Source of the DNA: a virus
Taxonomy: Duplodnaviria; Heunggongvirae; Uroviricota; Caudoviricetes
Length of the DNA: 4,475 nucleotides
Direction: 5' to 3' (one strand)
Virus record (IMG/VR): IMGVR_UViG_2565956708_000012
Shown: in pieces, positions 229 to 4,475 of the stretch
How positions within the stretch are numbered: the stretch's first letter is position 1
How the letters are laid out: each line of letters opens with the position of its first letter
Notes under the pieces: generated by a model
The model's input: only the letters and a program-made list of their open reading frames with translations
Told to the model about the DNA's origin: nothing
The model's database searches: none
Translations under genes and position numbers: made by a program

Positions 229-462
229 GAGTAGCTTACGAAGCTTACCATCAGCGGCAACCATGTTCATATGAACACAGTTGAATTTGCTAATCTGCTT
301 CATGAGTTTTGTTTGCTGCGTTGACCAGCTCATTCCGAGGTTTTCAACGATTGGCTTCATCGCAACATATGCAACTCCGGCAGCCATGGCGGTGATAATT
401 TGCTGACCGTTGAATGGCACGTAAGAGGTGTTCACTGCTTCTAAAATTGCTATACTATTCAT
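226..462 (-). pseudogene. ant: Antirepressor (Ant/AntA-like) N-terminal fragment, 3'-truncated by the IS insertion
   Basis: ATG at 462..460 sits 9 nt after a GGAG (complement of 473..476). The 78 native codons ([44 protein letters not shown]...) resemble an AntA-type antirepressor N-terminus. The frame ends in a TGA formed by the IS terminus (complement of 226..228), and Ant proteins are normally several-fold longer. The 528 GTG start in the ORF track is an unsupported upstream extension. Confidence 0.55.
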
Positions 463-545
463 GTTGGTTTTTCTCCACGGATTTACCGACAACCGAAGCC
501 CTGACTGTTCCAGCAGTTGGGGCTTCACTGTTTTGATTTCTTTGC
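463..545 (+). ncRNA. Putative sar-like antisense RNA covering the ant ribosome-binding site
   Basis: Extended -10 TGcTATACT at 448..456 on the + strand predicts a start near 463. The transcript would be complementary to the ant SD and start region and end at the 495..526 hairpin plus T-rich tract. This is inferred from sequence and the P22 sar paradigm only. Confidence 0.25.
495..545 (+). terminator. Hairpin with downstream T-rich tract (intrinsic terminator candidate, + strand)
   Basis: A 13-bp stem (495..507 pairing with 514..526, two G-U wobbles, loop ttccag) is followed by actgTTTTgaTTTcTTT at 527..545. The T tract exists only in the + orientation. Confidence 0.35.
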
Positions 546-694
546 CGCATCAAGCATCACTTCTGAAAACGTGCGCTTGCCACTGAATACTCTTTCTCTT
601 CTCAATTTTTCGTTCGTGCCAAATGATTCGCCATGAACAAAATTTGGTCTTAAAATGGTAATCGCAATCTCTTTGACTACTGCATCCAAGCGAA

Positions 695-847
695 TCACAC
701 CGTTACCCCCTCTCTCTTCAGGCTGTCTATCAGGCGCTTGATAACCTCTGAGTTAAACGACCTGCACTCTTCCTTTGCCCTGCTACCGATAGCATCCTTT
801 AACGACTGCGGCATCCTTACCAAAATCTTACTTATTTCTTTCTCCAT
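695..847 (-). CDS. arc: Arc-like ribbon-helix-helix transcriptional repressor (50 aa)
   Basis: ATG at 847..845 follows GGAGGG with a 5-nt spacer. The product MEKEISKILVRMPQSLKDAIGSRAKEECRSFNSEVIKRLIDSLKREGVTV fits the Arc/MetJ RHH pattern (basic beta-strand xVRMPxxL, then RSxNSE helix) and P22 Arc length. It lies upstream of and co-oriented with the ant fragment. The 883 start in the ORF track is an unsupported extension. Confidence 0.7.
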   Translation of the reverse strand: MEKEISKILVRMPQSLKDAIGSRAKEECRSFNSEVIKRLIDSLKREGVTV

Positions 848-961: not shown

Positions 962-1210
962 ATGGCAAAGGGTGTGTCAATTTCTCCAACTACGGTAAGA
1001 ATCCCTGAATCTTTACGCGAGGCTCTTGCTGTCAGAGCATCAAAAAATGGTCGCTCTGTTAACTCCGAGATCGTCATGATTTTGCAAGCCGCGATTGATG
1101 AAGATAGGTCGCCAAAGTCAGTTGAGTCATTTGCTCAGCAAGAAGCTGATAAATTCAAAGAGGCGCTACTTGAGACGCTAAAGACCATGTATGCTAAGGA
1201 TGAAAAATAA
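962..1210 (+). CDS. mnt: Mnt-like ribbon-helix-helix repressor (82 aa)
   Basis: ATG at 962 is preceded by AAAGG. The product MAKGVSISPTTVRIPESLREALAVRASKNGRSVNSEIVMILQAAID... has an N-terminal RHH (GRSVNSE motif) and a C-terminal helical tail ending ...LETLKTMYAKDEK, the same size and architecture as P22 Mnt as I recall it. It is divergent from arc. The 920 TTG start in the ORF track is an unsupported extension. Confidence 0.6.
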   Translation: MAKGVSISPTTVRIPESLREALAVRASKNGRSVNSEIVMILQAAIDEDRSPKSVESFAQQEADKFKEALLETLKTMYAKDEK

Positions 1211-1777: not shown

Positions 1778-1796
1778 CCCACCTGACGGTGGGTTT
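1778..1796. terminator. Bidirectional intrinsic terminator between convergent genes
   Basis: aaaaaaCCCACCtgacGGTGGGttt: a 6-bp GC-rich stem (1778..1783 with 1788..1793) and 4-nt loop, flanked by an A tract upstream and a T tract downstream. It sits between the ClpP-like stop (1746) and the YafO-like stop (1795..1797). Confidence 0.6.
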
Positions 1797-2244
1797 AGTC
1801 AAACATAGTGTTTCTAAAGTCTCTCGCATACCCTGCTAACACTCTCATTCTATTATGATTGTTAGCAGACATGTGAGCTACAGGATGAAAAAGAGCAATC
1901 AATGAATACCTGTTCTCATCAAAAAGATTTTGTGCATAAACGAGAGCGGTATTGGATGTTTTATGCCACTGCAACTTTTGCGGTGTGCTGATATCTGTGC
2001 CATTTTTTATTGGCTCAAATTTATTTTCACCAATTGCTAAATGAAGGTGCATAAGGCCTGCATCTTCAATATCAGGAGGTCGATGATAAGAGGTGTCTCT
2101 GCCAAAATAGCTGGGCAACGTTCCCGTAGACTTGTAGATGATAAAATCATCTACAAGTGTTTGTTTTAAATCAGGAAACTCAACAAAAACCGGGGAGAAA
2201 AAATAGTCAAAACTATCCTGATTATATTCCACGGTTACTTGCAT
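1795..2244 (-). CDS. YafO-family toxin (ribosome-dependent mRNA interferase family), 149 aa
   Basis: ATG at 2244..2242 follows GAGG with a 6-nt spacer. The translation aligns with E. coli YafO as I recall it: DFIIYKSTGTLPSYFGRDTSY vs DFISYKRDGVLPDIFGRDALY, HLHLAIGEN vs HIHLANEN, ALVYAQNLFDENRYSLIALFHP vs HLVYCQGAFDEQAWLLIAILKP, and a C-terminal NNHNRMR...ARDFR vs DNNQMHK...AEAFR. Confidence 0.7.
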   Translation of the reverse strand: MQVTVEYNQDSFDYFFSPVFVEFPDLKQTLVDDFIIYKSTGTLPSYFGRDTSYHRPPDIEDAGLMHLHLAIGENKFEPIKNGTDISTPQKLQWHKTSNTALVYAQNLFDENRYSLIALFHPVAHMSANNHNRMRVLAGYARDFRNTMFD

Positions 2245-2252
2245 GTTTTACC

Positions 2253-2819
2253 TCAGTGGAAGTTACCAGAGTGAAACACACGAGTCCCGTGCTCAGCAAG
2301 CGCACGCAAACCAGCCATATCTACGGAACTATCAAAAACAACCGGAACACATGAGCGTTGTTTAATAAGACTATTCAGGTTGGTTACGGCAGATCTGGCA
2401 TCAGCAACAACGATATAGATATCTCTTGCGATCTCTTTAAAATCAGCAGAAGCTTCTTTGAATACCGATTTCATTGCCCCTTCAAGTCCTCTCAATTGAT
2501 GCTCTATCAATCGAGACTTTTCTGGTTCAATGATAGACAACACATTGTCTACATTCTCATCGGTAGCGTTTGCAAGAACACGATAAGCGTATTTCAGCAT
2601 TCGAGACAATTCTTTAATCGAAGACACCGCCTCATGAAGCTCATCATTAGCCCGTTCACTGCTGAATGAGGATTGATGGTAAGCGTGCTGAACGTTATCA
2701 GTAACAACCACCTCACAACTGAACGCAGAAGCTTGCTGTAATAGCAAACCTATTGCGACTCCAGCTTTGGCAGCGTTCAAGCTAAACATTTCATCAATCC
2801 CATTAGTCTCATTGCTCAT
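2253..2819 (-). CDS. Hypothetical protein (188 aa), upstream operon partner of the YafO-family toxin; putative non-canonical antitoxin or regulator
   Basis: ATG at 2819..2817 is preceded by AGGAGG with a 5-nt spacer. The stop at 2255..2253 lies 8 bp before the YafO-like ATG. I recognise no family. The TTG start at 2849 in the ORF track is less likely than the RBS-supported ATG. Confidence 0.55.
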   Translation of the reverse strand: MSNETNGIDEMFSLNAAKAGVAIGLLLQQASAFSCEVVVTDNVQHAYHQSSFSSERANDELHEAVSSIKELSRMLKYAYRVLANATDENVDNVLSIIEPEKSRLIEHQLRGLEGAMKSVFKEASADFKEIARDIYIVVADARSAVTNLNSLIKQRSCVPVVFDSSVDMAGLRALAEHGTRVFHSGNFH

Positions 2820-2886: not shown

Positions 2887-2915
2887 AGTTTACGTCACGT
2901 GATATCATTATGCAA
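2887..2915 (-). promoter_or_regulatory. Candidate sigma70 promoter for the partner/YafO operon, with a palindrome in the spacer
   Basis: On the minus strand, -35 TTGCAT (2915..2910), a 17-bp spacer, and -10 TAAACT (2892..2887). The spacer contains the palindrome TCACGTGA (2895..2902) overlapping GATATC (2901..2906). Confidence 0.35.
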
Positions 2916-2994
2916 CCACCGTTCTATCACCGACTAACTTTACTCCCACTCCTATACATCATCTGGTATCCTGCGCAAAACTAAGGAGGTTGGT

Positions 2995-3345
2995 GTGAAT
3001 GCTCAGTCTGTCATCATGGTTTTCCTTGGGCTGATTGTCGCAAAACTATATCCAGACTGGTGGAAAGGGGCATTAGCTACTGTCGCCATCTATTTGCTTT
3101 TATCCATCGTTAAGCGATCACTCGCTGAGACCGTAAATCAAGCAAAACGTTTCTCATTTAAGAGTTTAATAAACTATGTTACTGGGCTTATTTTTTGCCT
3201 TTCAATTCTGATCGCTTCGGCTTTTTTGCCCGTATCAATAGCTAATTTTTTTGGCGCACCATATGAGGTAGGTTATCTATTCTCTGTTTCCTGTCTTGCC
3301 ATTGCTCTTCTTTACCTGTGGACGAGATCAAAGAATAAAAATTAG
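2995..3345 (+). CDS. Small integral membrane protein, 116 aa, about four predicted transmembrane helices
   Basis: GTG start at 2995 is preceded by a strong AAGGAGG (2983..2989) with a 5-nt spacer. The translation has four hydrophobic stretches (about residues 5-19, 25-39, 58-78, 92-109) separated by short charged loops, with a basic C-terminus. The gene is AT-rich relative to the flanks and divergent from the partner/YafO operon. Confidence 0.6.
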   Translation: MNAQSVIMVFLGLIVAKLYPDWWKGALATVAIYLLLSIVKRSLAETVNQAKRFSFKSLINYVTGLIFCLSILIASAFLPVSIANFFGAPYEVGYLFSVSCLAIALLYLWTRSKNKN

Positions 3346-3362: not shown

Positions 3363-4381
3363 TTATTGAGCTTCTTTTTGTGATGCCTGTGCGACTCTGG
3401 TGAGCGATTGTGTGACCGTACTGATCGCTCTGTCATATGCTGTGCTACCTTTTGGCGTATTTGCCAGACGTAACAAGGCATTTCGTATAACAGGGCTTTC
3501 GTATGCCTTCGCAGCTCCTCCTACGACACCAGCAGCAGGAACAACAAACGCAGCCGTTTTTAGCATCCCCGCTAATACTGCTGCGTTTATGATGCCACCA
3601 CCAACTAACAATCCATAAAGCTGCTGACCATTTAAGTTTTGAACGTTCGCTTTTGCCGCGTGTCTTGTATCGTTGAGGTATTTAATAACGCCGTCCAGTT
3701 CCTTTCCATGTACGCCTTTAAAGAAAGTTGCTGATTGCTTCCTGTTCCGGTGTAACGCATTAATAAACTTTTCAACACTAATATTTCCAGACGGATCAGT
3801 CGCCTTATCTACAGCATTCTGAACTATGGCTGCTCGTGCGTTTTGCCTACCATTGTCATCCAGAAGCCTGTAAAGCTGAGAACGTTCTGATGGGTTTTGG
3901 CTAAAAACGAGTTTTGTTACATCCTCAGGTGTAGCCTTGCCGCTGGCTATTGCCTTTTGAACGCGCGTTCTTCCCATCATGTCATTGAATCTAGCCCATG
4001 AGCGATCAACCCTAGACATATTGGCAGCTTCTTCTGAGCCTAGTTTTTGGGATACTGCTTTTTTCATATCCGCTGTATATGCCTTGTAGACAATATCGCT
4101 GGCTTTCTGGAGCGTGTCTTTATCAACAGTCTCGTTTGAATTCATGAACCGCTTTCGAAGGTCAGTTCTGTTTTCTCTCGCCAGACGCAGGTCATTGGGT
4201 CCGCTGGTGATATCGTCTTTAAATTGCTGCAAGACTTTTACCGCGGCTCTATCCTGAGATTTGCCCGGGCGGCTTAACACGGCAATCTGATTGTCGATAG
4301 CTTTTACCGTGTTTGAGAGATCGACAGGGGTATCCCCCATAGCGTCAATTATGCGGTTATATCGCTTTCCTGCTGCCTCAA
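3363..4381 (-). pseudogene. Large protein, 5'-truncated by IS insertion; possibly a phage DNA-ejection/internal protein (gp16-like by synteny)
   Basis: The minus-strand frame is open from the TAA stop (complement of 3363..3365) through the IS junction at 4381/4382 and on to a stop inside the IS. The first ATG (4340) has no SD. The product has a glycine-rich hydrophobic segment (LLVGGGIINAAVLAGMLKTAAFVVPAAGVVGGAAKA). The gp16-like call rests only on its position relative to mnt. Confidence 0.4.
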
Positions 4382-4475
4382 TGAACCGCCCCGGGAATCC
4401 TGGAGACTAAACTTCCTGAGAAAGAGGTAAACAGGATGACTAAAAATACTCGTTTTTCCCCCGAAGTCCGTCAAC
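4382..4475 (+). mobile_element. IS3-family insertion sequence (IS629/IS1203-like), left end, truncated by window edge
   Basis: Terminus TGAACCGCCCCGGGAATCCTGGAGA (4382..4406) is the inverted repeat of 204..228. It is followed by an RBS (GAGG) and the orfA start. It has the same orientation as the copy at 1..228. Confidence 0.85.
4436..4475 (+). CDS. IS3-family transposase OrfA, N-terminal fragment (MTKNTRFSPEVRQ...)
   Basis: ATG at 4436 is 7 nt after AGAGG. The N-terminus MTKNTRFSPEVRQ is the characteristic start of IS3-family OrfA (helix-turn-helix protein) of the IS629 group, from memory. Confidence 0.8.
   Translation, partial: MTKNTRFSPEVRQ

Follow-up and report, generated by a model that had tools for sequence, protein, structure and literature searches.

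The window analyzed here is a 4,475-nucleotide stretch of tailed-phage DNA (Caudoviricetes; IMG/VR virus record IMGVR_UViG_2565956708_000012). It is the "ant moron" of a P22-like prophage of the APEC O1 / S88 type, and it carries a gene for a 116-amino-acid (aa) membrane protein, which we refer to as ORF116. This gene is transcribed divergently from a toxin operon, formed by a 188-aa gene and a YafO gene on the minus strand, and is convergent (tail-to-tail) with a fragment of gene 16, the two lying 17 nt apart. An initial annotation, made from the letters of the sequence, had described the open reading frame (ORF) and the divergent operon, and had noted that P22-like phages carry superinfection-exclusion genes such as sieA at this position. 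The ORF and the arrangement are as described there, and the position given for sieA is correct: in P22, sieA lies between genes 16 and 9 and is convergent with gene 16 across a 22-nt gap (PMC10883804). ORF116 has the identical place and orientation, carries the translation signals of sieA and alternates with a SieA-family gene, and its product may be an exclusion protein of separate ancestry.

Translation signals, selection and predicted membrane topology

ORF116 is represented in UniProt as B7MGX2_ECO45 and in the PGAP annotation as WP_011703616.1, a 109-aa version that starts with an ATG at 3016. Its ribosome-binding site, called strong in the initial annotation, is even stronger than claimed, as all 9 bases of the Shine-Dalgarno (SD) sequence TAAGGAGGT (2982-2990) are complementary to the 3' end of the 16S rRNA, and 4 nt separate it from a GTG at 2995. 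GGAGG and GTG are conserved in five divergent contexts of the close family, including that of Yersinia (dS, the synonymous divergence, about 1.3), and the sequence further upstream diverges. Met8 is replaced by Ile in one homologue, and MN.Q opens the sequence of each of four relatives at 37-38% identity. Taken with the conservation of the SD and GTG, these observations indicate that the GTG is the true start and that PGAP places it 7 codons too late. Pairwise ratios of nonsynonymous to synonymous divergence (dN/dS) of 0.12-0.47, with 0.14 against the Yersinia copy, show that ORF116 is a real gene, translated and under purifying selection.

The correspondence with sieA extends to the sequences on both sides of the coding sequence (CDS). 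The 34 nt at 2964-2997, which comprise the leader, SD and GTG, read tggtatcctgcGcaaaactaaggaggttggtGTG and differ from the P22 sieA counterpart by a single base (33/34 identical). The type B sieA of prophage HS1, which is arranged as P22 sieA is, has caaaactaaggag in common with the window leader, a further record of the shared string being CAAAACTAAGGAG, and the sieA-like gene of E. coli CX21 has the SD and GTG in common with ORF116. At the other end, a hairpin, AGCCATCCGTGGCT, lies in the 17 nt that separate the two convergent stop codons. Every ORF116-family gene, the Yersinia copy included, is followed by this conserved hairpin, as is the CX21 sieA-like gene, and its counterpart behind P22 sieA is GCCGTCCTTGGC. 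As in P22 sieA, the gene lies on the strand opposite the late operon.

Kyte-Doolittle and Hessa-scale scans bear out the four helices of the initial annotation, with hydrophobic segments at approximately aa 5-17, 25-39, 58-85 and 92-109, and two AlphaFold runs model helices at 3-18, 22-48/49, 55-85 and 90-114/115. Transmembrane segments TM1 and TM2 are short (12-15 residues), and helix 1, itself short, could be a cleaved signal peptide. Lysine and arginine residues number five in the loop 40-57, three in the C-terminal tail, two in the turn 17-24 and none in the turn 86-91. Because of this distribution, the positive-inside rule predicts that the protein probably adopts an N-in/C-in topology in the inner membrane, with the KLYPDWW and GAPYEV turns toward the periplasm. 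K17-L18-Y19-P20, within the first of these turns, is invariant, and A16 nearly so, in alignments down to 37-38% identity. No soluble domain is predicted, only four hydrophobic helices and short loops, and any action would therefore take place at the membrane. In Foldseek searches of BFVD and PDB, no match had an E-value below 0.5; holins and the TM domains of pentameric ligand-gated ion channels (pLGIC) were among the matches, which are not meaningful.

Features of the window, with strand and the basis of each assignment
Feature	Positions	Strand	Basis or remark
ant, 5' end	229-462	-	
sar antisense RNA	463-529	+	Rfam RF00262, 83.9 bits, E 2.7e-17; antisense to ant start region
57-aa ORF	525-698	-	
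arc	695-847	-	
Arc/Mnt-like repressor gene	962-1210	+	
ClpP-like protease gene, 178 aa	1210-1746	+	
YafO-family toxin gene	1795-2244	-	
188-aa protein of unknown function (phrog_8416)	2253-2819	-	
Candidate extended -10 (TGaTATCAT), poor -35	2900-2908	+	Lenient scan; only plus-strand promoter-like match upstream of the gene
Leader, SD (TAAGGAGGT, 2982-2990) and GTG	2964-2997	+	33/34 bases equal to P22 sieA counterpart
CDS, 116-aa four-helix membrane protein (ORF116)	2995-3345	+	ORF list, dN/dS, conserved GTG, homologues
First helical hairpin, TM1 (about aa 5-16) and TM2 (aa 25-39)	3007-3111	+	Hydropathy, AlphaFold
K17-L-Y-P-D-W-W23 codons, TM1/TM2 turn, predicted periplasmic	3043-3063	+	Alignment; positive-inside rule
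Basic loop aa 40-57 (five K/R, one E), predicted cytoplasmic	3112-3165	+	Charge positions
Second helical hairpin, TM3 (aa 58-85), short GAPYEV turn, TM4 (aa 92-109)	3166-3321	+	Hydropathy; AlphaFold pLDDT (predicted local distance difference test) 70-78 here
Basic C-terminal tail TRSKNKN	3322-3342	+	
Hairpin AGCCATCCGTGGCT in gap between convergent stop codons	3344-3357		Terminator-like score on minus strand only
C-terminal 325 codons of gene 16 (P22-type ejection protein)	3363-4340	-	PHROGs matches; PGAP name 'P22-gp16 family'

Allelic exchange with a SieA-family gene

The islands between dinD and yicC of E. coli B4103-1 and CX21 are 97-98.5% identical over 500 bp upstream and 4 kb downstream of the slot, and they differ only between the common GTG and the stop codon/hairpin. 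B4103-1 carries an ORF116-family allele at this point. The CX21 slot protein (WP_000087355.1) is 204 aa long, ends in NRYPGEARRARK, is 34% identical to HS1 SieA (EcHS_A0321; E 2e-9) and matches phrog_7745 ("superinfection exclusion SieA-like") at E 4e-4. As judged from these alignments, the swap between ORF116 and a SieA-family gene is exact and runs from the start codon to the stop codon, between identical flanks, SD, GTG and hairpin. Among complete E. coli genomes, the CX21-type SieA-like allele occurs in 102 and the ORF116 family in 229, and either allele is found in strains of serotype O111:H8. Phage N7, whose gene 16 is the nearest among cultured phages (56% identity), encodes in the slot a 106-aa protein with a single N-terminal TM segment (ORF14; L032 4100-4420, minus strand). 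This N7 product appears from its sequence to be a third kind of membrane protein in the sieA slot.

ORF116 itself is, on present sequence comparisons, not a SieA homologue. These comparisons covered type A, type B and the CX21 type, and type C was not compared directly. BLASTP against P22 SieA gave E 0.29, and hhalign probabilities were 1.6% for type A, 0.1% for HS1 and 0.3% once both profiles had been broadened. The phrog_7745 profile detects P22 SieA (9e-109), HS1 SieA (6.5e-21) and the CX21 type (4e-4), but matched 0/6 members of the ORF116 family. No similarity between the coding sequences of SieA and ORF116 showed up, whether in any of the frames or in the DNA itself. Pfam was dropped as a test of SieA relationship, as the copy used was without PF26849 and left P22 SieA itself unmatched; phrog_7745, with its positive controls, was used instead.

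Searches of other family libraries with the 116-aa protein were likewise negative. Pfam and PHROGs scans gave nothing significant, including no match to HK97 gp15- or T4 Imm-type families, and NCBIfam gave only matches far below threshold; the sub-threshold matches across libraries were to holin, DUF2070 and LIC10906. No homology to a housekeeping membrane protein was found. PADLOC-DB 2.0 contained no matching family at E up to 1, a weak negative given that P22 SieA itself is not in that library.

Linkage to gene 16, distribution and prophage setting

The ORF116 family is small and restricted in its hosts. A word-indexed search of 5.8 billion proteins returned only relatives of at least 71% identity, all annotated as hypothetical, and a HMMER profile search of 1.84 billion representative proteins returned seven matches, all from the same small family, of which four were new relatives (37-38% identity, 115-120 aa). 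The hosts are all Enterobacterales: E. coli, E. albertii, Salmonella, Edwardsiella, Yersinia, Serratia fonticola and Pluralibacter gergoviae. The 229 E. coli genomes with the gene come from 5,426 complete genomes (about 4%); 61 of them carry a copy at least 99% identical to that of the window and 167 a copy with 90-95% identity. The gene is enriched in K1 strains of extraintestinal pathogenic E. coli (ExPEC) of the sequence type 95 (ST95) kind, such as S88 and APEC O1. A tblastn search against 50,697 phage records gave no match, placing the family outside the cultured-phage records, and a motif-pattern scan of genome contigs yielded no confirmed locus.

The constant partner of the family is gene 16. 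In all 26 loci examined (26/26), which span several genera and family members down to 39-40% identity (two IMG/VR contigs), the membrane-protein gene is followed, about 20-40 nt downstream, by a convergent homologue of gene 16 with the same type of C-terminus. The upstream neighbor varies: it is the YafO module in the window, a ClpP-like gene on the same strand in the related prophage L006, other small ORFs in Yersinia and in L027, and, in the dinD island, about 900 bp without an annotated gene followed by an ImmA/IrrE gene. The YafO module (about 1797-2975) is missing in the B4103-1, Yersinia, Edwardsiella, L006 and L027 contexts, and the membrane-protein gene is kept in all of them. The YafO operon and the ClpP-like gene were both considered as functional partners and dropped for inconsistent co-occurrence.

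The gene 16 product is the presumed target class of the proteins in the slot. SieA escape mutations map to the region of P22 gp16 residues 532-546 (PMC10883804). The gene 16 fragment of the window is 32% identical to P22 gp16 residues 294-592 and includes the equivalent region (3558-3629); G532, an escape position, is conserved in it, next to a Gly/Ala-rich hydrophobic segment.

In E. coli B4103-1, the gene lies in an integrative island of ~15 kb between dinD and yicC. The island contains an integrase, a helix-turn-helix (HTH) gene, AntA/AntB, a TOPRIM-DUF927 primase, DUF2824, the P22-type genes 7, 20 and 16, the sie-slot gene, ImmA/IrrE and PerC; genes for capsid, portal and terminase are missing. 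Its appearance is that of a satellite-like element with ejection-protein genes of its own, and the gene appears to lie in this island in many, and perhaps the majority, of the 167 E. coli genomes with the 90-95% allele. A similar layout of primase, gene 20, gene 16 and slot gene is found in Edwardsiella tarda.

The window itself comes from a damaged prophage. Both ends lie inside IS629-like elements of the IS3 family of insertion sequences (IS), at 1-228 and 4382-4475 and in the same orientation, a layout resembling a composite transposon. The IS elements have cost ant its 3' part and gene 16 its 5' part, and the prophage in the source strain is therefore defective; all moron cargo genes are intact. 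The 4.15 kb between the IS elements are 100% identical to a region of P22-like prophages located at tRNA-Arg/intS in K1 ExPEC (S88, APEC O1). The S88 prophage is complete, and its late-operon order is portal, scaffold, coat, gp4, gp10, needle, DUF2824, gp7, gp20 and gp16, followed by the region of the window, tailspike, acyltransferase and intS. The region between genes 16 and 9 is the "ant moron" described by Villafane et al. 2008 (PMC2629481), a paper that lists the APEC O1 prophage as one of its types and reports that the moron carries different genes of unknown function in different phages. Like that APEC-1 type moron, the window has arc, an mnt-like gene, sar and ant, which shows that the P22 immI circuitry is conserved.

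Upstream of the YafO toxin gene lies the 188-aa gene and not a short YafN-like antitoxin gene, and in L006, where the YafO module is missing, the ClpP-like gene stands directly before the membrane-protein gene. The ClpP-like gene is translationally coupled to the Arc/Mnt-like repressor gene on the strand opposite the late operon, and its suggested role as a head maturation protease (PHROGs) is unlikely because it lies outside the virion gene cluster. The initial annotation had taken base composition as a sign that ORF116 was acquired separately. ORF116 is AT-rich as stated (39.9% GC; 37-45% in 60-bp windows), but the neighboring gene 16 fragment has 46.3% GC and not the ~53% given for it. The stretch between the IS ends has 43.3% and the YafO gene 37.8%; ORF116 is thus AT-rich for E. 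coli but barely differs from its island, and GC was dropped as evidence of separate acquisition (40% versus 46%, with the whole island at 43%).

Candidate role in superinfection exclusion

Given the sieA leader, SD and GTG, the hairpin, the exact CDS swap and the slot position, a membrane exclusion protein is the best hypothesis for ORF116. The best-supported form of this hypothesis is a non-homologous SieA replacement that would block DNA entry of P22-like phages, because the predicted protein consists only of membrane helices, uses sieA translation signals, alternates with the SieA family and is constantly linked to gene 16. We consider the chances of this reading to be about even. The exclusion candidate of the initial annotation is thereby tied to sieA more strongly than could be seen from the window, through the leader, hairpin and CDS swap, but without being a SieA homologue.

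Under this proposal, the protein would be expressed from the prophage as a small polytopic protein in the inner membrane of the lysogen, where it would insert N-in/C-in as two helical hairpins, with the invariant KLYP turn and the GAPYEV turn at the periplasmic face. SieA has been proposed to act against the gp20/gp16 conduit or, alternatively, against a host factor, for example YajC (PMC10883804). ORF116 may similarly interfere with how the trans-envelope gp20/gp16 conduit of superinfecting P22-like phages assembles or functions, or with a host factor in the inner membrane on which the conduit depends, so that incoming DNA would be kept out and the lysogen would survive. The more specific proposition, a new inner-membrane exclusion family unrelated to SieA that blocks the gp16/gp20 conduit through its periplasm-facing KLYP turn, is tentative and falls somewhat short of an even chance.

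Comparison with known systems places ORF116 closest to SieA in setting and apart from it in sequence. P22 SieA (type A; PF26849 / phrog_7745) is also a small polytopic membrane protein without a soluble domain, with an inner-membrane location that has been shown for SieA and is predicted for ORF116. P22 SieA has three TM segments with a loop of ~55 aa, whereas ORF116 is predicted to have four short helices in two hairpins with an 18-aa basic loop. Types B and C of SieA have one further N-terminal TM segment relative to type A (PMC10883804), and the four predicted TM segments of type B equal those of ORF116 in number, although the 2+2 layout only loosely recalls type B. The HS1 and CX21-type proteins occupy the same slot in P22-like elements of E. 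coli, but ORF116 is about half their length. HK97 gp15 and T4 Imm, both cited in PMC10883804, are small exclusion proteins of prophage or phage origin in the inner membrane (by demonstration or prediction) that block DNA translocation by acting on the entry conduit. They belong to the mechanism class proposed here for ORF116, a likeness of mechanism only, and differ in coming from long-tailed or contractile phages and from other genomic contexts.

Several observations weigh against an exclusion role of this kind. Profile comparison detected no homology to the SieA types covered, and the protein is 116 aa long versus 162-212 aa for SieA proteins (162-164 aa for P22 SieA). FxRYPxEAxxFNK, the only strongly conserved SieA motif, C-terminal and cytoplasmic (PMC10883804), is present in the P22, HS1 and CX21 proteins (as NRYPGEAR(K/R) in the latter two) and absent in all ORF116-family sequences, whose C-terminus is a short basic tail. 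The window does not preserve the P22 PsieA promoter region, and a stricter promoter scan than the one that yielded the candidate -10 element found none on the plus strand, leaving no convincing promoter within the window. AlphaFold models of the protein are of low confidence (pLDDT 56.6 and 64.4). The single-TM protein of N7 in the same slot is unrelated to SieA and to the ORF116 family. A variable-moron position is guilt by association, and cassettes swapped at a hotspot may differ in mechanism. Finally, a literature search found no paper mentioning the 116-aa protein.

These points leave room for other functions, of which another type of anti-phage membrane effector is the likeliest, though in itself unlikely. 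Such a protein might, for example, depolarize or permeabilize the membrane on sensing infection (abortive infection), or exclude another phage group or act at another entry step. It would fit a small polytopic protein without an enzymatic domain, encoded by a variable, prophage-expressed moron beside defence-like cargo (the YafO toxin module and the ClpP-like protease), and it would fit the lack of sequence relation to SieA in a slot occupied by several unrelated membrane proteins. However, no PADLOC defence model matched, no partner or sensor gene travels with ORF116 as upstream neighbors change and gene 16 alone is constant, and the gene's frequency and integrity in lysogens are no sign of high intrinsic toxicity. 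A lysogenic-conversion or host-fitness protein, hitch-hiking in a permissive site and acting in stress tolerance, transport modulation or as a virulence accessory, is rather unlikely. The 2008 paper (PMC2629481) describes the ant moron as the only site of the morphogenetic cluster that tolerates inserted genes, the roles of most being unknown, and this permissiveness, the enrichment in ExPEC ST95-type K1 strains and the integrity of the gene in a defective prophage are all in keeping with such a role. Against this, an equivalent selective role is indicated both by the gene's exact alternation with a SieA-family gene downstream of one and the same leader and by its linkage to gene 16 in an element without capsid or terminase genes; the searches also revealed no relationship to a host family of membrane proteins.

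A role in the handling of the phage's own ejection proteins, either as protection of the inner membrane from newly made gp16/gp20 or as a membrane chaperone, is improbable. The invariable link to the 3' end of gene 16, even where genes 7, 20 and 16 are the only virion genes left, and the up-regulation of P22 sieA on induction (PMC10883804) would suit it. Yet the gene has an SD of its own and stands on the strand opposite the late operon, most P22-like phages do without it, as its absence from the 50,697 phage records illustrates, and SieA, with which it is interchangeable, is not needed for growth and brings about exclusion by itself (PMC10883804). That ORF116 could be a true homologue of SieA, strongly diverged and shortened (a 'type D' SieA), we consider very improbable. 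The slot, leader and terminator are the same, the helices loosely recall type B, and a weak local alignment, FSxxxxxNx[IV]T, falls just before the third helix (hhalign E 0.031). That alignment is the one with 1.6% probability, and it is gone (0.3%) once both profiles are broadened; moreover, phrog_7745 recognizes all three SieA kinds and none of the six family members, the SieA motif is absent and no reading frame holds similarity. Remote SieA homology, considered for this one motif alignment, was accordingly dropped after the profile broadening and the all-frame check. A holin or other lysis protein is effectively refuted by context. A weak Pfam match to Phage_holin_3_6 (E 0.065) reaches 13.7 bits, far under the gathering threshold of 28.4 bits, and the Foldseek holin matches rank low (E 0.8 or worse). 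Lysis cassettes of P22-like phages lie upstream of the terminase genes, no such cassette is near ORF116 or within the ~15 kb of virion genes between it and the terminase in S88, and the strand is opposite to the late operon.

The presence of variable genes of unknown function in this region has been known since 2008, that of sieA since the 1970s, and the action of SieA since 2024. What appears to be new is a distinct, selected family linked to gene 16 and unrelated to SieA, its use of the sieA leader and terminator, and its exchange with sieA-family genes exactly at the CDS boundaries. Our literature search found no paper on the family, on its unrelatedness to SieA, on its use of sieA signals or on the boundary-exact swap, and the accessible part of PMC2629481 contains no analysis of the function, family or slot of the gene.

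If ORF116 is indeed a non-homologous replacement for SieA, the sieA position would be a true cassette locus, with the leader, SD and GTG on one side and the hairpin on the other, between which unrelated exclusion genes (the SieA types, the ORF116 family and the N7 single-TM protein) are exchanged CDS for CDS. The precise swap at conserved boundary sequences also offers a clean example of phage moron exchange. SieA is the only exclusion system of short-tailed phages with a target traced to the ejection-protein conduit. The authors of the 2024 study had no easy explanation for the exclusion of phages with very different gp16/gp20 by SieA proteins that share only 24% identity (PMC10883804). An unrelated 116-aa four-helix protein on the same expression signals would be a minimal second solution for comparison, and if both exclude the same phages, what they have in common would more likely be a site in the membrane or a host factor than a specific fit between proteins. 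The presence of the gene in K1 ExPEC lineages (S88, APEC O1) would, in that case, bear on their susceptibility to P22-like K1 phages.

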